58,909 bases of DNA, from contig QZJQ01000007.1 in the NCBI GenBank assembly GCA_003599795.1, forward strand, positions 1-58,909. The letters run 5' to 3'. Within the stretch, counting starts at the first letter, position 1. Every line of letters begins with the position of its first letter. The notes under the pieces were generated by a model. It was not told the DNA's origin and did no database searches. It worked only from the letters and a program-made list of their open reading frames with translations. Below are positions 2,030 through 50,873 of this stretch, one piece after another. The translations under genes and the position numbers were made by a program. The stretch comes from Nitrospiraceae bacterium (GTDB lineage Bacteria; Nitrospirota; Thermodesulfovibrionia; Thermodesulfovibrionales; UBA1546).

Positions 2030-4516
2030 TTAACCTGCTCTTTTCATACATGAATTAACATCAGCAACCACTTCTTTACCGCTCTGGTACCTCTTTTCAA
2101 CATCCTTGGCAAGAAGTTTATCCGCTATATAAACGCAGCAGTCAGGCACATCCGGCAATAATTCTTTTGGAGAGGCATGAGGTGTATTGGCAATATTGAA
2201 CATAAGCGTTGCAATGCTGTCTCCCTTAAAGGGCTTCTCTCCTGTGAGAAGTTCAAAAAACACGACGCCAAGCGAAAACAAATCAGAGCGGCCGTCAACT
2301 TTCTTGCCCAGTACCTGTTCAGGAGACATATAGCTGGGAGTTCCAAGAATCACGCCTGTCTGCGTTTTAGATGTTGCTATAACTCTTGCTATGCCGAAGT
2401 CCGTTATCTTAACCTCCCCGCCTTTAAGAAGCATGATGTTGGAGGGTTTTATATCCCTGTGAACAATGCCCCTGCTGTGCGCATAGTCCAGCCCGCCGGC
2501 AACGGCGGCAATTATTCTTAAGGCCTCTTTAATGAGAAGCTTGCTCCCCGAAGAAGAAACAGCGCTCAGGTCTTTGCCTTCAAGAAGTTCCATTGCAACA
2601 TAAGCAACGTCATAATCCTCGCCTGCATCATAAATCGTCACGATATTAGGGTGAGAGAGTGTGCCCGCAGCCTCTGCCTCGCGGAAGAACCTTTTCTTGG
2701 TTTCATCAAGCTGCTCGGGATCAATTTCATCAAACCTCATTGTCTTAACCGCAACAAACCTGTTTATTTTTGGATCCTTACCTAAAAATACAGTGCCCAT
2801 GGCCCCGCGTCCGAGTTCTTTCTGAATCTCATACCTGCCGAGCGTAGGCCTTGTCTCAGCGCCTTCCATCAATATTGTGGCTTCTTTCTTAGCGCCTGTT
2901 GCGCCGAATATCATTGTGTCCCCTGCAGTCTTAAGCCTTTTTATCCTCTCTTTTACATCCTTGAAATTGCCTGCCTTTAATATATGCTCATGCACGGCAA
3001 CCGCCTTGTTAAACATCCTCTTGCGCTCGAAATCAAGCCCGAGATTATAGAGCAATTCCTTCACAGCCTCGTCTTCCACAGGGCATTTCCTGAATTTCTC
3101 AAAAGCAAGGTCCAGCATCCCCTGGCCTTGAAATGAAAGGCCGAGCATCTTATTTGTCTCTATGCTGTCAGTTTCAACAAGCTCTTTTCTCCTCTCTGTA
3201 ACCATGTACCTCTTGGACATTATCACAGTGTAACCCACAAAGAGCAGCAGCACCGGAGAAAGCATCATAATCCAGTAGCCGTTTGAAATAAAAAGATATG
3301 CCGCGGCTCCGCTCCATAACAACAGGAACACCAGAGAAATAATTGCGCTTATGCCTGCCTTAAGCCTTGGTATGATGAAAGAGATGAAAATTCCGAAAAA
3401 AGCCATTGCCCCAAGCTCTGCGTATAATGCCCATTCAGGCCTTGAAATAAAATTCCCGTTCAAAAGATTCTCTATCACATTCGCCTGTATTTCAATAGCC
3501 GGAAACGTATGCGCAACCGGAGTCACCTGCAATGTTGCATGCCCTGTCGCAGTATGCCCTATTAATACAATCTTGTCTTTGAATGCTTCAGGAGCAACCT
3601 TGCTGTTTATAACATCAACGAACGAATAATAAGGAAATGTATTAAATTTGCCGTTGTAATTTACAAACATCCTCCGCTGCCTGTCAGCGAGAATGTTGAT
3701 TTTGCCAATGCTCAGGCCCTTGGAAATGTTTATATCTGACATGCCATAGTTCAGATATTTCATTACTGCATGCAAGGCAAAAGACGGGAAAATGCGTCCC
3801 TTGTAATTTATAAATAAAGGCTCTCTCCTGATGGTCCCGTCCTCATCTGCAATAAGGTTCATGTGCCCAAGCGCCAAGGAGCCTGATAAAAATTCCTGAA
3901 TCGGCGCTTCCGTTTCCGAGGCATTGATATACGAACCGTATGCCGCTTCCTTTGAATTCCTCTTGAGATGTTCTCCAAGCTGCCCGGGATCAGGACTGCT
4001 CATCTGATTGCTGATTGTAAAGGAAAGCGGCAACACAACATTCTTTGCGGCGTTTATTGAGGCTGTCAGTTTCGTATCACTGTCAAGGCGCTGTTCTGCC
4101 TCGCCGAGCAGGTTGTAAATACCTGACAAATGCGCGTTGGTCTGGTATTTAGGAAGAGACTCAACCTCTTTCTTCAGCGCCCTAATCTCAAGAAGCCCTG
4201 AATTCATATCCGGCTCTGTATAGAGAATATTAACACCGATAATCTTTGCTCCATAGCCTGAAAGCAGCCCTATCATCTCGGCTATATATACACGGGGCCA
4301 GGGCCAGCGCCCGATGCCTGCAATGCTGACATCGTCTATCGTCACTATGACAACAGGGCTTGACGCCTTGCGCTGCTTGAGCTCTATCATTGAGTCGTAG
4401 GCCTTATATTCAAGCAGGCGCAGAGGATACCACTCAAAAAAATAGCCGCCCGAAATAAGCAGGGTGAGCAAAATGCCGATGAGCCAGTCAGGGAATATGG
4501 TCTTTTTTTGTTTCAT
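2030..4516 (-). CDS. CHASE2-domain membrane Ser/Thr protein kinase
   Basis: CHASE2 (GRWPWPR), 3 TM helices, TPR-like linker, Hanks kinase (LGRGAMG, HRDIKPSN, DFG, GTPSYMSPE); ATG 4516 preferred over the track start 4561. Confidence 0.88.
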   Translation of the reverse strand: MKQKKTIFPDWLIGILLTLLISGGYFFEWYPLRLLEYKAYDSMIELKQRKASSPVVIVTIDDVSIAGIGRWPWPRVYIAEMIGLLSGYGAKIIGVNILYTEPDMNSGLLEIRALKKEVESLPKYQTNAHLSGIYNLLGEAEQRLDSDTKLTASINAAKNVVLPLSFTISNQMSSPDPGQLGEHLKRNSKEAAYGSYINASETEAPIQEFLSGSLALGHMNLIADEDGTIRREPLFINYKGRIFPSFALHAVMKYLNYGMSDINISKGLSIGKINILADRQRRMFVNYNGKFNTFPYYSFVDVINSKVAPEAFKDKIVLIGHTATGHATLQVTPVAHTFPAIEIQANVIENLLNGNFISRPEWALYAELGAMAFFGIFISFIIPRLKAGISAIISLVFLLLWSGAAAYLFISNGYWIMMLSPVLLLFVGYTVIMSKRYMVTERRKELVETDSIETNKMLGLSFQGQGMLDLAFEKFRKCPVEDEAVKELLYNLGLDFERKRMFNKAVAVHEHILKAGNFKDVKERIKRLKTAGDTMIFGATGAKKEATILMEGAETRPTLGRYEIQKELGRGAMGTVFLGKDPKINRFVAVKTMRFDEIDPEQLDETKKRFFREAEAAGTLSHPNIVTIYDAGEDYDVAYVAMELLEGKDLSAVSSSGSKLLIKEALRIIAAVAGGLDYAHSRGIVHRDIKPSNIMLLKGGEVKITDFGIARVIATSKTQTGVILGTPSYMSPEQVLGKKVDGRSDLFSLGVVFFELLTGEKPFKGDSIATLMFNIANTPHASPKELLPDVPDCCVYIADKLLAKDVEKRYQSGKEVVADVNSCMKRAG

Positions 4517-39810: not shown

Positions 39811-40104
39811 TTATGCAACTTCGTAGTGGACGACCGACATTTCTGAACGAAGCTCATCCAATTTATCAAGAACAGATTCAACCTTATCCACAACACTGCT
39901 CTTCATATATGCCTCGCCGCAGTCTGAACAGATTTCAGCAGGCACATCCTTGATAACCACAACCTTCTCACTAATAAGAAATGGAATTGTGGTCATACCG
40001 TCGTGCATCTCTCCGCCGCATAATGGACATCTCTTAACCTTGTTTTTTCTTGTCTTCCAGTCATTTTTCCACCTCTCAAAAATAAATGGGGTCAGGTCTT
40101 GCAT
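39811..40104 (-). CDS. YgiT-type zinc-finger (MqsA-like antitoxin) protein; 5' end apparently rearranged
   Basis: CPLCGG..VVIKDVPAEICSDCGE; the N-terminus looks like a toxin-gene tail plus a REP-like motif. Confidence 0.7.
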   Translation of the reverse strand: MQDLTPFIFERWKNDWKTRKNKVKRCPLCGGEMHDGMTTIPFLISEKVVVIKDVPAEICSDCGEAYMKSSVVDKVESVLDKLDELRSEMSVVHYEVA

Positions 40105-40192
40105 TTATGCATTTATCTTTTAGCCACATTTCACATCTCCCAAATCACTTTACTCCGCTTCCTTCAAAATATATCTTTGCCCTGTCTTCTCA

Positions 40193-40579
40193 CTATTCAT
40201 AAGAAATCATATCTAATTCATCGATGAACCGATAATCACTTCGATTTTTTGTAGCTAAAGGCGCCCCTTTAATAATGGCTGTTGCTGCTATCAAGGCATC
40301 AGCAATCAGCAGGCCATGACTCAGACGATATTTATGAAGCAGTTCCACCGCCTTACCGCCAATTGATTCATCCATGCCTTCAATATTAAATCTGCCGACA
40401 AACTTATCCAGCACGGTTAATTCCCTTTTGTTTCCGCAACCGACTATTAATTCCATTTGTGTGACAACACTGATTATCGGAGTAAATTCTTTCTCTGTTT
40501 TGTCCAGAAATGAAACAGCCTTTGCTACATTGCGACCGATGTCTATCAGAATATCTGTATCAATAATAACACGTTTCAT
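40193..40579 (-). CDS. VapC PIN-domain toxin
   Basis: IIDTDILID, SVVTQMEL, DALIAATA, TKNRSDY. Confidence 0.88.
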   Translation of the reverse strand: MKRVIIDTDILIDIGRNVAKAVSFLDKTEKEFTPIISVVTQMELIVGCGNKRELTVLDKFVGRFNIEGMDESIGGKAVELLHKYRLSHGLLIADALIAATAIIKGAPLATKNRSDYRFIDELDMISYE

Positions 40580-40827
40580 GCTCTGTCAGCCCATTCGCTA
40601 CGCCTCACTTTTCTTACCCATAAGGCGCTGTCCTGCATGTCTTTTCTCTCTTTCCACATCCCGACAAAAGCTTCATCTTTAAGCTTTAACACTTTTGCTT
40701 TCTTCTCTGTGGTTTTTTCCTTATAGCGGCTGCCAAGAAACTTGATAAAGTCTGCTACCTCCTGTTGTGCCTTTTGAGGCAATTTATCGAATTGATTGAA
40801 TACTTCTGTTTTAACCGTACCAGCCAT
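40576..40827 (-). CDS. DUF2281-type antitoxin
   Basis: LPQKAQQEVADFIKFL, FVGMWKER; ATGA overlap with vapC. Confidence 0.75.
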   Translation of the reverse strand: MAGTVKTEVFNQFDKLPQKAQQEVADFIKFLGSRYKEKTTEKKAKVLKLKDEAFVGMWKERKDMQDSALWVRKVRRSEWADRA

Positions 40828-43787: not shown

Positions 43788-44240
43788 ATGAAAAGATTTG
43801 GCGTCATAAGATTAAGCGTCATATGTGTTATAGCGCTAACAGCGCTTGCAGGCTGTGTGCAGACAGTCACTACTTACAGCATAGACGATTATAAGACCGT
43901 GCCTAAGGTTGTTTACACGGCGTATTTTTATAGTTCCGGCATAGGCGAGAGATTAAGGGCTGTTTTCCTGAAAAGCCCTGAAACCGAGGTGGAAATTGTC
44001 CCTTATTCCCGGCAGATAACAACTGAAAAAGCTACGTTCAGCGATGCGCTGACCTTTATGGAAAAAGTAGGGGACTTCAAAAACATTTCCATACAGGGAG
44101 TAAAATATAAAGAAAAGACCATAGGCTATCTGCTCACATTCGCAAGGCCTGTATCTCCGAGGGAATCCATAGAGGTTAATGTTTACGAGCGCGATGGAAA
44201 GATTTACTTTTCAGTCACGGAAAGGAAACATGATGAGTGA
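43788..44240 (+). CDS. Hypothetical lipoprotein
   Basis: SD GGAGG, MKRFG..ALAGC lipobox; the upstream part of track ORF 43449 is antisense overlap. Confidence 0.75.
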   Translation: MKRFGVIRLSVICVIALTALAGCVQTVTTYSIDDYKTVPKVVYTAYFYSSGIGERLRAVFLKSPETEVEIVPYSRQITTEKATFSDALTFMEKVGDFKNISIQGVKYKEKTIGYLLTFARPVSPRESIEVNVYERDGKIYFSVTERKHDE

Positions 44241-44252
44241 TTGGCGGTTAGA

Positions 44253-44444
44253 TTAAGCATATGCCAAAGCTTCGTCTATGTCTTGTGGTTCAAGATATGG
44301 ATAAGCCTTTAATATGGATTCTTTTGTCTCACCGACAGACAAAAGTCCGAGGATTCTGGAAACAGGAAATCTCAAGCCTCTGATGCATGGTTTGCCGGAA
44401 CAGACTTCAGGGTCAACAGTTATTCTGTTAAATTTCATATTCAC
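44253..44444 (-). CDS. DUF433 antitoxin-like protein, possibly 3'-truncated orphan
   Basis: RITVDPEVCSGKPCIRGLR..YPYLE..DI..AL.Y; no cognate toxin follows. Confidence 0.75.
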   Translation of the reverse strand: MNMKFNRITVDPEVCSGKPCIRGLRFPVSRILGLLSVGETKESILKAYPYLEPQDIDEALAYA

Positions 44445-44621
44445 CTCCTGTCCTCATTTTAGCATAAAAGCGTTGGACATAGAGAAAAGTTGTTAGTCCT
44501 CTCCTTTTAAAAAAGGGTTTGAGGGTCGTATTCAAAAAAAGCGGTCGCTGTCCCTCGTTTCTGTTCTTATTAGGCTGTATATTAACCTAACTCTTCGGTG
44601 TGTACGTTATACAGGGGAAAG

Positions 44622-45374
44622 TCAAGAATGTCTTTGATATGCTGTCAATAACCCTATTAAATAAAAATAACCGATAAAGAAAATTATTGCGACAATCACG
44701 CGCATGGGACCGATTTTATCATGAGACACGATAAAATTGCCTTCACGATCCCATGATGTTATACCATCTTTTGTTAGGTTATTATGTGCAATAGCAAGAG
44801 TTATAAGTATAACGATCGGGAATCCTATCCCAAGCCCTCTCCACCACACTGAAAAACTACGTGTTAAAGCACTTGAAAATGTCAGTTTATCCCCTGCACC
44901 ATTCCGTAAAGAGGTTTTGAATAACCATTTCCCCGGAGTACTACCCCATGTCGATATCAAGCTTGATTCTACGAAAATCCAAATGAATATTATTAACATG
45001 CCCAATGCAAAATCTGGCATATTTGACATAGATGGGTGGAAAAACACCAATACAAAACCAGCAAGAAGTGAGAATGAACAAAGATCAAACATCCTTGCCC
45101 AAAAGCGAACCCATGGACGGACTTGGATCCCCGCAAGTAACCCTAAAGAAGGAATTGGCGGCGGTTCTTGTTTTGGCAAAGGCGGCGGATAAGGAATAAC
45201 CTTCACTAAGAAAGCTTCAACTTTAAAAGCTGGTGTCCATTTTGATAAATTGTCAGACCAAATCAGTGTCGCAGCTCCCAAAATTCCAGCGTTAAACATC
45301 TCATGCATCTTACTCTGAGGAACTGGCCCCTCTTGTTTGTTCTCCTTAACGTAATACCACATTCTTTCACTCAT
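44622..45374 (-). CDS. GYF_2 + RDD family membrane protein (cassette 3)
   Basis: WYY..QEGP..W..W GYF_2 domain; RFWARMFD..TPGKW RDD domain. Confidence 0.8.
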   Translation of the reverse strand: MSERMWYYVKENKQEGPVPQSKMHEMFNAGILGAATLIWSDNLSKWTPAFKVEAFLVKVIPYPPPLPKQEPPPIPSLGLLAGIQVRPWVRFWARMFDLCSFSLLAGFVLVFFHPSMSNMPDFALGMLIIFIWIFVESSLISTWGSTPGKWLFKTSLRNGAGDKLTFSSALTRSFSVWWRGLGIGFPIVILITLAIAHNNLTKDGITSWDREGNFIVSHDKIGPMRVIVAIIFFIGYFYLIGLLTAYQRHS

Positions 45375-45401
45375 ATTTAGCTCCTTTTAAAAACTTGTGC
45401 C

Positions 45402-45467
45402 GCCTAACGTTCACGCACAAACTAAGCCGTTAGGTTTGTGGTCTTTGCCGTTTGTGCTGTGTTAGCA
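45402..45467 (-). mobile_element. Integron attC site
   Basis: Minus strand TGCTAAC..GCACAAAC..GTTTGTGC..GTTAGGC, 66 bp. Confidence 0.75.
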
Positions 45468-46104
45468 GTTGCTCTATAATATTACTAATAAAATCTTCTT
45501 GTGCACTATTTGCATACTTCCATAATCTCTGACCAGTCCAATCCCATTGAGGATGGGATGCTTTCTGAATTTTGTATGTATTGAAGCGGCTGTATATAAA
45601 CTCCAAAACGTTTTTCCATGTAATCTGTGGAACTTCTGGATATTTTTGCTTCAGGTCTTGATTGATTTGGTTGCCAACACAAAAAAGTGAAAGGTATGCA
45701 AGTTGGTTTTCAAAGACTCCTTTTTCGTAAATTTGTTTTGCAATTCTGTCTACTGATGCTTCTGGAAAAACTCCAATAGCTCTTAACACTCTATGTATGT
45801 TCATTCTTTCTCTCTGAACCCATGGTCCGTTCAGGTTGCAAGTTTGAGACTTCACCTCAGCAATGATAATATAAGGCTTATGTTTGACTTTTGTGAAGAT
45901 TTCTTCATCGACCATGGGATTTTTCAACAACTCAGCCCTGTAAGGAAATCTTACACCCAAAATATCTACATCGGTTTCTTGTCCGCATCTACTATCTGGG
46001 TGAACAACGAAATTAACAGTTGTAAGAAAACCATTCAAACGGAAGTACCAATAGGCAAGATTTTCGGAATCAATAGGTTTGACTTCTCTCACCTTCATCT
46101 CCAA
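45430..46104 (-). CDS. Hypothetical protein, possible PD-(D/E)XK nuclease fold (cassette 2)
   Basis: E..LAYWYF..TDVDILG..IAEVK pattern. Confidence 0.55.
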   Translation of the reverse strand: MEMKVREVKPIDSENLAYWYFRLNGFLTTVNFVVHPDSRCGQETDVDILGVRFPYRAELLKNPMVDEEIFTKVKHKPYIIIAEVKSQTCNLNGPWVQRERMNIHRVLRAIGVFPEASVDRIAKQIYEKGVFENQLAYLSLFCVGNQINQDLKQKYPEVPQITWKNVLEFIYSRFNTYKIQKASHPQWDWTGQRLWKYANSAQEDFISNIIEQLLTQHKRQRPQT

Positions 46105-46125
46105 TCTTCGTTATAAGGCAATTTC

Positions 46126-46197
46126 GGATAACGACCAAGCTCACTGGCGGCGGTTCCGCTTACGCTCCATCCCCGCCAGTGCAGCGCATTGTTAGAT
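46126..46197 (-). mobile_element. Integron attC site
   Basis: Minus strand ATCTAAC-AATGCGCTGCACTGGCGG..CCGCCAGTGAGCTTGGTC-GTTATCC, 72 bp, just after the stop codon. Confidence 0.85.
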
Positions 46198-46199
46198 GC

Positions 46200-47204
46200 T
46201 CACTTATATTGTTCCTGAATGATAAAAGAATTAGCGATCATTTTAAAAAGTAGTTCAAAACGACTAAAATTTTCTTGCAGTTTTGACTCTTTACCTGGCG
46301 TAGCAGAAATCACACACTGAATGAATACCATTTTATTTCCATGTATAATAATGAAGTGCAGATTTCGCATTGTCAAAGTCAAGTCAAGTCTTTGCACTGA
46401 TTGGTCAAAAAGGATCATAGCACCTTTATGATTATCTAGAACAATGGGTTTCGCAGAAATGAACTTTCCACCATCAGAAACCATCCCTCTCAATTCACTT
46501 TCAGTGAAGAACTCATCTAAATCCTTCTGGGTTAGTGTATAACCAGGAGGTAATGGAATGTCTTTCACCATAATCAAAAACATTTCCAAACCCCTGCCAT
46601 TTTCACTTGTGAATTTTTGGATAATATTTGGCCTTTCCCCTTCTTTAGGTTGCCAGCTAATAGGATAACGAATCTGAAAATCAATACCCTTTGCTTTTGG
46701 GTGACCTTTTGTTCGGAAAATACGGTTATATCCTTTAGTGAATTCTTCCGCTGGACGATATTGAAATTGATATGTAAGCAATGTTTCCAGAATAGGGGAA
46801 GGGACATTGCCTTTAGCTCTTGATTCTACTTCGGCAAGAAACAGTACTGCGATGTCTTGATTTAACTGTTGAGGAGAGAGTGTAGATTTGAGTTGCTTCT
46901 TCATCCTTGCCACATATTCAGAATATTTATCTTTAAGCATGTCTTTCAGAGCACTTTTGATATTCTCTTCAGCAATGCCAAATGCTGTTTTGAATTCAAG
47001 GTCTGCCTTTTGAACCCGTAAACCTAGGGCTGGATATTCATCCTTTATACGATTAAGGCTAAATCGTTGTCCCATGATAAATCCCAACGTTTTGCTCAAA
47101 TCAACGTGAAGCGACTCCTGAATTGTCTGGCCAGACACGGATTGAACAGAAACAATAGTAAATGCCATGAATATGCTTATAAATAATAAACAAAAAGTTT
47201 TCAT
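46200..47204 (-). CDS. Hypothetical exported protein (cassette 1)
   Basis: 334-aa ORF with a Sec signal peptide, bounded by GTTAGATGC and GCATCTAAC. Confidence 0.7.
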   Translation of the reverse strand: MKTFCLLFISIFMAFTIVSVQSVSGQTIQESLHVDLSKTLGFIMGQRFSLNRIKDEYPALGLRVQKADLEFKTAFGIAEENIKSALKDMLKDKYSEYVARMKKQLKSTLSPQQLNQDIAVLFLAEVESRAKGNVPSPILETLLTYQFQYRPAEEFTKGYNRIFRTKGHPKAKGIDFQIRYPISWQPKEGERPNIIQKFTSENGRGLEMFLIMVKDIPLPPGYTLTQKDLDEFFTESELRGMVSDGGKFISAKPIVLDNHKGAMILFDQSVQRLDLTLTMRNLHFIIIHGNKMVFIQCVISATPGKESKLQENFSRFELLFKMIANSFIIQEQYK

Positions 47205-47220
47205 CTGCCATTATCCTTTC

Positions 47221-47315
47221 GCATCTAACTTGTTTATAATTGCACTCAGGTGCGTTTGTCCTCCTGAAAAAGGACATTTGCATCCTAAGATACAAAAGAG
47301 CGATATTCCTGTCAA
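47221..47315 (-). promoter_or_regulatory. attI-like site and Pc-like promoter at the head of the cassette array
   Basis: TTGACA-17-TATCTT, then ATAAACAA-GTTAGAT (compare attI1 TAAAACAAAGTTRRRY); no attC stem upstream. Confidence 0.6.
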
Positions 47316-47387
47316 GGAAATTTTCACATCCAAAAGCAGGACTCTGAGAAATGACAAAAGTATCGAATTATGTTGTATAATAAATCC

Positions 47388-47654
47388 ATGAAAACCATTG
47401 ATACTACAGTAAATATATCTATGAAATATCCGGTGTCCGAAAAGAAACTATCTGAGATTATAAAATCTGGAAAAACGGATAATAAATATCTTGCGCATAT
47501 ATTTGCCTTGTTTACCGATGTCCCCGCGCCTGATTTATTGGCTTTCATCAAAAAATATGATATATCCTTGCCTGCCATCAAGAAATATTACTTTAAGCAC
47601 GTAAAGAAATTTTACCCTAATGCCGAATTAGAAAATGTCTTTACGTTTAAATAA
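47388..47654 (+). CDS. Putative antitoxin partner of the AbiEii-like toxin
   Basis: Small ORF coupled by TAATG overlap to the nucleotidyltransferase; start uncertain (47370 or 47388). Confidence 0.55.
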   Translation: MKTIDTTVNISMKYPVSEKKLSEIIKSGKTDNKYLAHIFALFTDVPAPDLLAFIKKYDISLPAIKKYYFKHVKKFYPNAELENVFTFK

Positions 47655-48283
47655 TGAAATCTGCTGACTGGCTTCCTCTCTTTAAGTTCGCTTTAAAAAT
47701 CTTATCACAGGAAAAGGTTTTAAAAAGTCAGTGGTCTTTCGGCGGCGGAACTGCTTTAATGACTTACTATAATCACAGGAAAAGTAAAGATATTGATATT
47801 TTCTTGAGAGACGTCCAGCTTCTAACAAAATTTACGCCGCGATTAAACGACTATGTTGCCGAGCAAACAGATGACTATACCGAAATGTCAAACTCTCTGA
47901 AATTGAAGGTAAAGGAACAAGAGATAGATTTTATTGTTGCCCCGTTATTAACCAAAACGCCTACATTAAAAAAGATAGTGGGCAATACTCCAATTTATAT
48001 TGAAACCCCGGAAGAAATAGTAATCAAGAAAATTTTTTATAGGGCAGACGCCTTCAAAACAAGAGATGTCTTTGATCTGGCAGTTGTTATTAAGCATAAA
48101 GAGAATAGCCTTTTAGAGAATCTTGATATTTTTCAGAGTAAGATAGATGTCTTACTAAACAGGCTAAATATCCTGAAAAAAATTTACGCTATTGAATTGA
48201 AATCCCTTGATATTATAGACAGCCAGACTGCTAAGGACTCCCTCAAGATAGTACAAGAATTTATTAATAAGTTAATTCACTGA
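47654..48283 (+). CDS. AbiEii/AbiGii-family nucleotidyltransferase toxin
   Basis: [29 protein letters not shown]. Confidence 0.85.
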
Positions 48284-48308
48284 GGCAAAAACAATTTCCG
48301 TCAACAAT

Positions 48309-50873
48309 ATGCAAACCTCTATAGTCATAAAAGGCGCGCGGGAGCACAATCTCAAGAACATCAGCGTATCCATACCCAGAGAAAAGATAACTGTTATCAC
48401 CGGCCCCTCGGGCTCCGGCAAATCATCCCTTGCAATTGACACAATCTACGCCGAGGGACAGAGGCGGTATGTTGAAAGCCTTTCAGTATATGCAAGGCAG
48501 TTCCTTGAACAGCTTCAGAAACCCGACGTGGACCTTATTGAGGGGCTTTCCCCTTCCATTGCAATTGAGCAGAAAACAGTTACGAAAAGCCCGCGTTCAA
48601 CACTCGGCACAATAACCGAAATCTATGACTATATGCGTGTGCTTTACACGCGGATTGGAAAACCTTACTGCTATAACTGCGGTTCGCTTATAGCCGCGCA
48701 GGAGGCTCAGAACATAATAGATTCCGTTGTGTCACTCCCTCAGGGAACACGCATACAAATACTTGCGCCTATTGTCAGAGACAGAAAAGGTGAATATAAA
48801 AAAGAGCTTTACGATATGCTGCGCGACGGGTTTATAAGGGCGAGGATAGACGGCGTGATGTTTGACCTCACACAGGATATAAAGCTGAAGAAACAGCAGA
48901 GGCATACCATCGAGATTGTTATAGACAGGCTTCTTATAAAAACAGGGACTGAAAGGCAGATAAAGAGCGCGATTGATTCAGCATTAAAATATACGGACAC
49001 CGTTATAATTAATCTCATAGACAAAAACAAGGACATCCCTTTCAGCAGGACCATGGCATGTCCCAACTGCAGCATAAGCTACCCTGAGATTAATCCGAGA
49101 TTTTTTTCCTTCAACAGCAAATACGGAGCCTGCCCGAGATGCCACGGCATCGGGTTTGAAAACATCGGCGAGGATTTTGAGGCCGAAAAACAGGACTTCG
49201 GAGCTATAACCGATGAGGAAGTGGCCGGGTTATCAGCGTGCAAGGCGTGCAAAGGCATGAGACTGAGAAAAGAGGCGCTGAGCATAAAAATAAACGACAC
49301 AAACATAGCTGAATTTTCAAGAATGTCTGTCATCAACGCAATTCAATTTATCAATGCGCTTAAGCTTACGGACCGGGAACAGACAATAGCTTCGCGCGTG
49401 CTGAGAGAAGTCAAAGACAGGCTTTCGTTTCTCAATAAGGTCGGCCTCGGTTATCTGACAGTTGACAGGCTTTCGCTTACGCTTTCAGGCGGTGAAGCGC
49501 AGAGGATACGACTTGCAACGCAGATGGGCTCGTCCCTCACAGGAGTGCTTTATGTCCTTGACGAGCCAAGCATCGGGCTTCATCCAAGAGACTGCAAAAA
49601 ACTGCTTGAAAGCCTTTCGTCAATAAGAGACTCAGGAAATACAGTGATAATAGTTGAACATGATGAAGATACCATAAACTGGGCTGACCATGTCATTGAC
49701 ATGGGGCCGGGCGGAGGGCTTAGAGGCGGATGGATAACCGCAGAAGGCCCGCCTTCTGTTATCAGGGATAACAAAAACTCATTGACAGGCAGATACCTCA
49801 AAGGCGAACTGAGCATACCAGTGCCTGCAAAGAGGAGAAAATCAAAAGACTTCATCCATATCAACGGCGCGTCAGAATTTAATCTTAAGGATATAGATGT
49901 CAAGATGCCGCTGGGCCTGTTTACATGCATAACAGGTGTTTCAGGTTCGGGCAAGAGCACGCTGATATTTGAAACTCTATACAAAGCTATCGCCGGAAAA
50001 CTATATAAAAGCGCGCTCATCCCGGGAAAGCACAGGGAAATTACAGGCATGGAAAAAATTGACCGCATAATATGCGTGGACCAGTCTCCGTTGGGACGCA
50101 CGCCCAGGTCTAATCCCGCGACTTACACCGGGATATTCACATACATCAGGGAACTCTTTGCGCAGATTCAGGATTCAAAGATACGGGGATATACTGCATC
50201 GCGCTTCAGTTTTAATGTCGCATCCGCCTCAGGCGGAGGAAGATGCGAGTCCTGCCATGGCGGAGGCACGCTTAAGGTTGCCATGCATTTCCTTCCTGAT
50301 GTTTACATCCCATGCAATGTATGCAAAGGCAAAAGATACAATAAAGAGACGCTTGAAATAAGATATAAAGACAAAAACATAGCTGAGGTCCTTGCGATGA
50401 CGGTTTCAGAGATGCTCCGGTTCTTCAGCGCAATTCCGCTTATACGCCAGAGGCTTGAAATACTTGAAGACGTGGGGCTCGGATACATTCAGCTTGGCCA
50501 GTCCGCGACAACTCTCTCAGGCGGTGAAGCTCAAAGGGTAAGGCTTTCAAGAGAATTCGGGAAAAGGTCCTCCGCCTCAGGCGGAGGAAACACTCTTTAT
50601 CTGCTTGACGAGCCTACGACAGGACTGCACTTTGCCGACATTCAGAAACTCCTTGATGTCATAAACAGCCTCATAGACCTCGGAAACACGGTGGTTGTGA
50701 TAGAGCATAATCTTGACGTGATAAAGTCATCTGACTATATAATTGACCTTGGGCCTGAGGGCGGAGAAAAAGGCGGAAGGGTCATAGCCGCAGGAACACC
50801 TGAAGAAGTGAGCTCAAATCCTGATTCGTATACGGGGATGGCTTTGAAAAATAAATTAGCGGTGAATAGATAA
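48309..50873 (+). CDS. uvrA: Excinuclease ABC subunit A
   Basis: GAREHNLKN, two Walker A motifs (GSGKS), LSGGEAQR x2, zinc fingers. Confidence 0.96.
50223..50585. repeat. Two identical TCCGCCTCAGGCGGA palindromes in frame in uvrA (50223-50237, 50571-50585)
   Basis: Both encode SASGG at normally conserved motifs. Confidence 0.8.

Follow-up and report, generated by a model that had tools for sequence, protein, structure and literature searches.

A probable integrase-less, chimeric remnant of an integron-like gene-capture platform in a Nitrospiraceae genome

How does a small array of gene cassettes come to lie behind a promoter and a recombination site with no integrase gene beside it? Integrase-less clusters of attC sites are common and their origin is debated; the locus described here raises this question in a form in which the origin is readable from the sequence. 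It lies in a contig of 58,909 nucleotides (nt) from a Nitrospiraceae bacterium of the order Thermodesulfovibrionales (GenBank assembly GCA_003599795.1, contig QZJQ01000007.1, forward strand), which was analysed as a whole and is called the window hereafter. The source assembly, G000, comprises 1.40 Mb in 63 contigs and is rated 74.7% complete, the window being its contig C3; other assemblies, their contigs and the loci compared are likewise cited by G, C and L numbers. A preliminary description of the window had pointed out three co-oriented, AT-rich genes separated by two attC hairpins, preceded by a promoter and an attI-like site and lacking an integrase. Calls of open reading frames (ORFs), bins of G+C content (GC) and covariance models agree with this picture of three minus-strand genes of low GC with two attC sites between them. 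The locus is probably an integrase-less, chimeric remnant of an integron-like gene-capture platform, situated between a DUF433 gene and an AbiE pair.

The junction upstream of the first cassette leads back to a recombinase. All 29 bases of window 47225-47253 are identical to positions 159-187 of L151, a locus of a relative (identical to L160 = G011:C79 and therefore counted once) in which the site lies 95 nt downstream of a gene for a 315-aa tyrosine recombinase, on the same strand. The two sequences diverge directly after GTTAG, which is the pattern expected of one capture site with different first cassettes. In 596 Gb of species genomes, a 21-base string across the crossover has a single occurrence, at L151, and it is absent from the metagenome contig collection. 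In a second relative (G006:C276), an alignment of 48 nt from the hairpin to the crossover reaches z 11.3, a score attained by none of 300 shuffles. The whole window site (47225-47365) was compared with further platforms, giving z 22.8 for L151/G011:C79, 3.6 for G025:C1 and 2.7 for G003:C135, and no alignment to two sites of the G013/G003:C125 type. The attI sites of six canonical integrons in relatives have nothing in common with it beyond an A/T-rich run and GTTA. These comparisons show that the junction upstream of cassette 1 corresponds to the 3' 30-48 nt of a predicted attI-type site. The attI-like character that had been assigned to the upstream site is thus upheld by the identity to a recombinase-linked site and the divergence right after GTTAG.

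The recombinase of L151 matches the profile NF040815 with 225.5 bits (cut-off 220) and the integron-integrase profile TIGR02249 with 200.9 bits (cut-off 265) in two pieces, the first of which ends at profile position 180. Nine loci of relatives with such split TIGR02249 matches were examined. In six of them, the stop codon of the recombinase gene is followed by an arm, a G+C hairpin, an inverted arm or palindrome, an A-rich run, G|TTA and a gene with a ribosome-binding site; among the remaining three, G006:C59 is partly alike, one runs off its contig and G023:C7 is different. The arm sequences vary between the loci and their inverted-repeat relation is kept. Recombinase gene and site are co-oriented in the related Thermodesulfovibrionales genomes, at a distance of 95-150 nt. 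The start of the first cassette finds a 9/9 complement in the R'' of an attC-like palindrome 0.6-1.8 kb away at each of the four loci with at least 2.9 kb of downstream sequence, to which this comparison was confined (the other two have less than 160 nt left). Identity of the recombinases to the canonical IntI of G001 is 37-41%, and its insertion of about 40 residues is missing from them; a sub-threshold HARP-like N-terminal match was seen in two of four (18.2 and 22.5 bits, cut-off 25). At a threshold of E 1e-60, 15 of the 151 genomes sampled from the order have a member of this insertion-less family, four of the 15 being distant (43-46% identity). Within the genus, canonical IntI occurs in G001, G005 and G006 and the insertion-less type in G003, G005, G006 and G007. 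Loci at which an insertion-less recombinase heads an array include L157 (G025:C1), L152/L153 (G003), L155 (G006:C276), L158 (G013:C25) and L151/L160. These recombinases are sisters of IntI which head cassette arrays, with a structured attI and an attC class of their own. In the literature, consulted at the level of abstracts, no description of cassette arrays headed by insertion-less, co-oriented recombinases was found. The view that the platform is of the integron kind has to be corrected accordingly: the related recombinases lack the IntI insertion and are co-oriented with the cassettes, and the platform is not a canonical one. As a separate observation, the second attC site of the canonical integron on G001:C17 (L026 1-1539) is directly followed by a high-GC catalase-peroxidase-like gene, which perhaps constitutes a large cassette or else marks the array's end.

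The attC sites of the window were searched for with three covariance models. R1 was built from 6 attC sites beside canonical intI genes in five relatives and R2 from 12 attC sites beside canonical intI genes of relatives, neither of them containing window sequence; R3 was built from 5 attC sites of four other genomes, in arrays headed by insertion-less recombinases. The lack of a match to such a model would have refuted the preliminary description by its own account; both predicted sites were matched, attC1 by R1 and R2 and attC2, at a distance of 659 nt, by R3. attC1 is the sole window match below E 0.1 for R1 as well as for R2: R1 finds it alone with 26.2 bits and E 1e-3 (217-kb search), and R2, run with filters off, gives 23.3 bits and E 8e-4, the next match being a trivial palindrome at E 0.19. 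The site begins one base past the stop codon of gene 1. Its R'' ATCTAAC is separated by 5 nt from an L'' stem with a single bulged base; past the loop and L', 6 nt of spacer lead to R' GTTATCC. Its DNA fold amounts to -16.8/-17.5 kcal/mol (z -2.8/-2.2), and an ad hoc attC pattern script with strict rules yields two window matches, attC1 included, versus 0.45 in shuffles. Looser rules returned 10 matches versus 6.75 in shuffles and were dropped in favour of the covariance models. Elsewhere in G000, two single attC-like sites were noticed, C24:12431-12486 (L056) and C1:23676-23734 (L058), each just 3' of a small ORF and scoring 23.8 and 20.8 bits with R2; they may represent isolated cassettes.

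The case for attC1 is made by its context, namely the cassette boundaries, and not by the model alone. The first nine bases of cassette 1, GTTAGATGC (47229-47221, minus strand), are the exact complement of the extended R'' of attC1 (46199-46191). The pairing of GTTAGATGC with GCATCTAAC, which had been remarked upon before, proved to be the sole 9/9 complement in the 1.2 kb examined. The same relation between cassette start and R'' is found in the canonical integrons of relatives, with 8 or 9 of 9 bases in five of six and 7/9 in the sixth. Moreover, a copy of cassette 1 with 88% identity is present in L060, a contig of a 'Proteobacteria' metagenome-assembled genome (MAG) unrelated to the window genome. 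The homology begins exactly at G|TTAGATGC and ends at most 3 bases from the R' of attC1; the DNA on either side of the copy is unrelated, and other small co-oriented ORFs and attC-like sites lie nearby. These limits show cassette 1 to be a discrete mobile unit which ends in a canonical attC site. The stretch TTAGATGC, placed in the recipient site by the preliminary description, belongs to cassette 1. In the L060 copy the attC site has decayed: it carries 3-nt deletions and reaches 10.2 bits with R2. Between positions 2590 and 5000, L060 further contains an array of small co-oriented ORFs with a repeated attC 3' half (AACTGCGGSGTTTGGGG GTTAG), which is recognised by neither R2 nor R3.

attC2 belongs to a different class. 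R3 returns exactly 45402-45467 from the window (29.1 bits, E 7e-5) as its sole match below E 1, and attC2 is also its sole match in the assembly (E 0.0017). With R2, attC2 goes undetected (at most 4.2 bits). Homologues of attC2 lie behind unrelated genes at G008:C5 and G008:C15, where R3 reaches 41.5 and 31.7 bits; with R2, attC2 and these homologues obtain 3-7 bits and none is detected. R3 finds no match in six canonical-array loci or in L060, and R2 finds nothing significant in four arrays of the insertion-less recombinase type. Likewise, attC1 falls outside the R3 class, there being no second R3 match in the window. Because R2 and R3 each match only their own kind, attC1 and attC2 represent two classes, the second being characterised by a 10-12-bp stem starting 1-4 bases after R'' and a 3-6-nt spacer before R'. 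That the two attC sites are unrelated in sequence, as had been stated earlier, is borne out in this form.

Genes 1 and 2 of the array have no match in Pfam, NCBIfam or PADLOC; in the protein collection they have 278 and 448 relatives, respectively, of which the named ones are "hypothetical" and stem from several phyla in both cases. No close relatives of gene 2 were found in the genome contig collection, its stop codon lies inside attC2, in the loop, and a PD-(D/E)xK-like motif is a mere impression from the translation. Gene 3 is of full length, its product matching 8 relatives of 247-259 aa from end to end. Its stop codon is supplied by the outer TG(A) of a remnant of an IS3-family insertion sequence (IS) that follows directly. 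This remnant is 82-89% identical to 9 copies in G005, 8 of which lie within about 100 nt of a contig end; at G005:C177 the repeat leads into an open frame, the 90-aa product of which resembles, by eye, an IS3-family OrfA. No attC site was found downstream of gene 3, where only a short R-box pairing of 8.1 bits occurs. As the IS end adjoins gene 3 and no attC follows, the array was evidently cut by the IS, most of which has since been lost.

No intI gene was seen in the window by the preliminary description, and profile searches of the assembly are also without one. The best TIGR02249 match in the assembly, at 75.9 bits (cut-off 265), is an Xer-like gene on another contig; PF00589 finds one gene, and the only match to the insertion-less family is 33% identical and Xer-like. 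In the window, recombinase gene and distal attI are absent, and the alignments show what appears to be a sigma-70 promoter/leader module in their place. The TTGACA-17-TATCTT promoter and the TGTCCT/AGGACA hairpin reported earlier are both present, the former with 10/12 consensus matches, the latter where recombinase-linked attI platforms have their G+C hairpin. Over about 76 nt, the module shares 82-89% identity with G007:C17, G008:C24, G002:C28 and G007:C110, and partial matches exist in G006:C295 and G006:C37; the promoter hexamers are identical or show one change in the 4 other full copies and the 2 G006 copies. In five of these six copies elsewhere, a (CAGA)n-containing unit and then an intrinsic terminator follow, the copy of G007:C17 being fused to a lipoprotein gene. 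Of the expression and capture platform that the preliminary description considered to be retained, the attI-derived 29 nt and the consensus promoter stand, whereas the promoter part is a module of the small RNA (sRNA) type and the distal attI has been replaced.

The sRNA-like family of the genus combines a consensus promoter and some 35 nt of leader with a conserved GCCTCTGGCATTAAT stretch, a (CAGA)n run whose length varies, and an intrinsic terminator. Its loci include L030 ~1860-2040 (G008:C24), L031 ~3990-4190 (G002:C28) and L033 ~2905-3270 (G007:C110), as well as L064 ~405-615 (G006:C295) and L065 ~620-840 (G006:C37). No Rfam family was found in window 45705-48865 or in three sRNA-like loci (4 sources, 22,146 bases), and neither the module nor the IS end has a further copy in G000. 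The likeness of the family's leader to the hairpin region of the recombinase-linked attI platforms suggests that the (CAGA)n sRNA-like genes of the genus might derive from such platforms. The coordinates of all features are collected in Table 1.

Table 1. Features of the array and its surroundings in the window, with strand and basis of assignment.
Feature	Position	Strand	Basis
DUF433 gene	44253-44444	-	Pfam; conserved in genus
Terminal inverted repeat remnant, IS3-family, directly after gene 3	44574-44622	-	
Gene 3, GYF_2 + RDD membrane protein	44622-45374	-	Pfam PF14237, PF06271
Cassette 3, own attC missing	44623-45407	-	starts G|TTAGGC (R' of attC2)
attC2, second class, long stem starting 1 nt after R''	45402-45467	-	R3
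Cassette 2 including attC2	45408-46131	-	bounded by R' of attC1 and R' of attC2
Gene 2, 222 aa (ORF 45430-46104)	45430-46098	-	ORF call
attC1, canonical type	46126-46197	-	R1, R2, fold, strict pattern rule
Cassette 1 including attC1, 1097 nt	46132-47228	-	boundaries matched by L060 copy; 9/9 complement
Gene 1, 334 aa, N-terminal signal-peptide-like segment	46200-47204	-	ORF call
Putative 3' part of attI-type site: palindrome GCAC-CTGA-GTGC (47242-47253), A-rich run, crossover G|TTAG	47225-47253	-	L151 identity
Crossover: recipient G at 47229, cassette 1 TT...	47228-47229	-	L060 homology starts here; L151 homology ends 4 bases further
Promoter + leader module, ~76 nt	47255-47330	-	common to multi-copy sRNA-like gene family of genus
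TGTCCT/AGGACA hairpin	47257-47276	.	counterpart in alignment: CCCC..GGGG hairpins at G006:C276 and L151
Sigma-70-like promoter TTGACA-17-TATCTT, pointing into array	47287-47315	-	10/12 consensus
94-aa ORF + AbiEii-type nucleotidyltransferase pair, divergent from array	47362-48283 (genes 47370-48283)	+	Pfam, PADLOC

The array occupies a variable insert of about 2.8 kb and low GC (44569-47361), the limits of which are set by the conserved flanks that stop on both sides. On the left, about 94% identity to G008:C25 extends as far as ~44560, with conservation ending at ~44568, and on the right, 89% identity to G006:C21 sets in at 47362; position 44569, from which the preliminary description had let the array begin, is the boundary set by this flank comparison. 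GC is 0.36-0.40 over 44001-48000, and all but three of the other 1-kb bins of the window have 0.42-0.50. In G008, the corresponding interval between the DUF433 gene and a UvrA-like gene contains one unrelated 226-aa ORF, and this different content marks the insertion point as a variable spot in the genus. The AbiE pair occupies the spot where an integrase would be expected. Toxin-antitoxin-like pairs were also noticed at window 39811-40827, between the dcw cluster and a DeaD helicase gene, comprising an MqsA-like ORF and a PIN + DUF2281 pair; together with the DUF433 gene and the AbiE pair, they give the region a high density of addiction-type modules. Upstream of the DUF433 gene, the conserved stretch 44445-44568 carries a short palindrome followed by a T-run (AGCGACCGC TTTTTTT, minus strand), which could act as a terminator of transcripts leaving the array.

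The history of the remnant can be sketched from these parts. Site-specific recombination at G|TT would have built the array in a period when it had access to a recombinase, either one of the insertion-less type or a canonical IntI, both being present in the genus. The recombinase gene may then have been lost by recombination via the short similarity of leader and hairpin, or in a rearrangement with the AbiE module, and an IS3-mediated deletion would have produced the present distal boundary. The promoter of the module would transcribe the three cassettes, each provided with a putative ribosome-binding site of its own. The array would now be frozen unless a recombinase is contributed by the unassembled quarter of the genome or by an incoming element.

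Several points weigh against this interpretation as a remnant of a capture platform. On the genome scale, the E-value of attC1 is only 0.019 and a site on another contig scores equally, which is why R1 and R2 alone constitute moderate evidence; besides, the E-values of home-made covariance models are rough. The consensus fold of three attC2-type sites contains no compensatory pairs. The start of cassette 2, TTATCC, is complementary to its own R'' at only 4 of 7 positions, and the status of this cassette as a unit is less sure for that reason. Significant similarity to the attI architecture covers only about 48 nt, the first arm is degenerate, and 47285-47365, upstream of the -10 element, gives z of at most 1.0 against all six platforms, so that the recipient site may be non-functional. 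Promoter-like sites are no commoner in the region than in shuffles (13 versus 9.9, standard deviation 2.7). As leader and hairpin of the module resemble the hairpin of the recombinase-linked platforms as well as the sRNA-type module, the exact chimera junction is uncertain and falls somewhere in 47255-47276. The role ascribed to the insertion-less recombinases is a presumed one, drawn from their position and the junction anatomy, and with an assembly of the completeness given above, the genome may yet contain a recombinase.

A functional version of the locus had been envisaged by the preliminary description: a working satellite in which the retained part of attI and the promoter capture and express cassettes, the recombinase being provided from elsewhere in the genome or by visiting elements. 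The 29-nt core and the proximal palindrome are identical to those of a recombinase-linked site, attC1 and attC2 are intact by their models, and the attC sites of the first and second cassettes are of different classes, as would be expected after repeated capture from different donors. The genus has both types of recombinase, and a quarter of the genome is unassembled. Still, the sole tyrosine recombinase in the assembly is one Xer-like gene, the platform either lacks its distal arm and post-stop part or has had them replaced, no second copy of site or module exists in the genome, and cassette 3 is fixed through the loss of its attC. A satellite of this kind is considered unlikely, and a remnant is preferred.

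Two other explanations dispense with an attI-derived recipient. The cassettes could have been inserted at a non-specific secondary site (attG) downstream of a resident promoter, the resemblance to attI being incidental. In the part of Loot et al. (bioRxiv 10.1101/2022.09.11.507474) used here, cassettes are described as inserting at GWT sites and as being expressed when near resident promoters, and many attC clusters without an integron integrase (CALINs) as containing only two cassettes; the promoter of the window is of resident type, and neither window nor assembly holds an integrase remnant. A resident promoter with secondary-site insertion was in fact the initial reading of the locus, dropped once the 21-base string had matched L151. 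The 29-nt identity to a relative's recombinase-adjacent site, up to and across the crossover, argues against this route, as do the 48 nt of similarity in a second relative; moreover, the body of an sRNA-like gene is not the source of the 26 nt that precede the crossover, since 109 to 418 of 500 shuffles score equally. Insertion at such a secondary site is thus judged very unlikely. It would be more improbable still, to the point of being hardly credible, that no integron-related element is present and that, between ordinary genes, terminators or palindromes arisen by chance account for the hairpins. The attC2 fold is no better than that of shuffles (z -0.4/-1.0), and R2 matches of similar score exist elsewhere in the genome; nevertheless, two independent models match exactly the two intergenic sites, the cassette boundaries equal those of the copy in an unrelated MAG, the 9/9 complement is present, and neither hairpin is followed by a T-run.

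As a decayed chimeric member, the locus has its main value in linking two attC classes and two recombinase classes in one phylum, and it shows how gene-capture systems decay and swap parts. The window might even record an exchange between two integron classes, in which a cassette with canonical attC stands first at a site of the insertion-less class and is followed by an attC of that class; this remains a tentative proposal and is rather doubtful. If it were true, either insertion-less recombinases recombine canonical attC sites without the helix thought to read extrahelical bases, or IntI makes use of a foreign attI, and a stub of attI and promoter without integrase could persist as an expression site fed in trans. 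Standard integron searches would miss the recombinases concerned because the domain looked for is absent, and, as the findings suggest, a second integron-like system that has been overlooked accounts for some of the 'orphan' arrays of environmental phyla. With a canonical attC and a second-class attC at one capture site, the mixed array provides substrates for testing cassette exchange between the systems and, furthermore, whether the extra IntI domain is indispensable for cassette recombination.

In comparison with known systems, the locus resembles several and coincides with none. At least two clustered attC sites, called by the models built here, and no integron integrase nearby agree with the definition of a CALIN, as do the co-oriented, promoterless-looking cassettes and the small size. 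The IS remnant at one end fits as well, this being among the CALIN origins that appear in the list of Cury et al. 2016 (PMC4889954) of the ways in which such clusters may arise. Unlike a CALIN, however, the window keeps a strong promoter and part of a presumed attI-type site, one belonging to a non-canonical type of recombinase, and combines two attC classes. The route by attG sites or single attC sites lacking integron integrases (SALINs), as treated in the part of Loot et al. cited above, shares with the window cassettes outside a complete integron, a small array and a promoter of resident type; it implies a recipient unrelated to attI or attC apart from GWT, whereas here the recipient is a 29-nt exact match to a recombinase-linked site and no arbitrary GWT site.

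Canonical integrons such as that of G001:C17 likewise have a promoter 28-66 nt upstream of the G|TT crossover, an A/T-rich run just before it and a first cassette whose start complements its own R''. Cassette 1 combines the G|TT boundaries with this complement, and the canonical covariance models recognise attC1, though not attC2. In contrast to them, the window has no adjacent intI with the IntI-specific additional domain; the homologous sites of its relatives lie downstream of and co-oriented with the recombinase gene instead of divergent from it, the recombinase is without the IntI insertion, and such recombinase-linked sites have the order palindrome, hairpin, palindrome. From the arrays of the Thermodesulfovibrionales that are headed by insertion-less recombinases, the window differs in that a co-oriented recombinase gene 95-150 nt upstream of the site is absent, the attC of the first cassette is canonical and the promoter part is foreign to the platform. 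With these arrays it shares the attI core, the hairpin and the proximal palindrome, and attC2, fitting their model, is an attC site of their own class.

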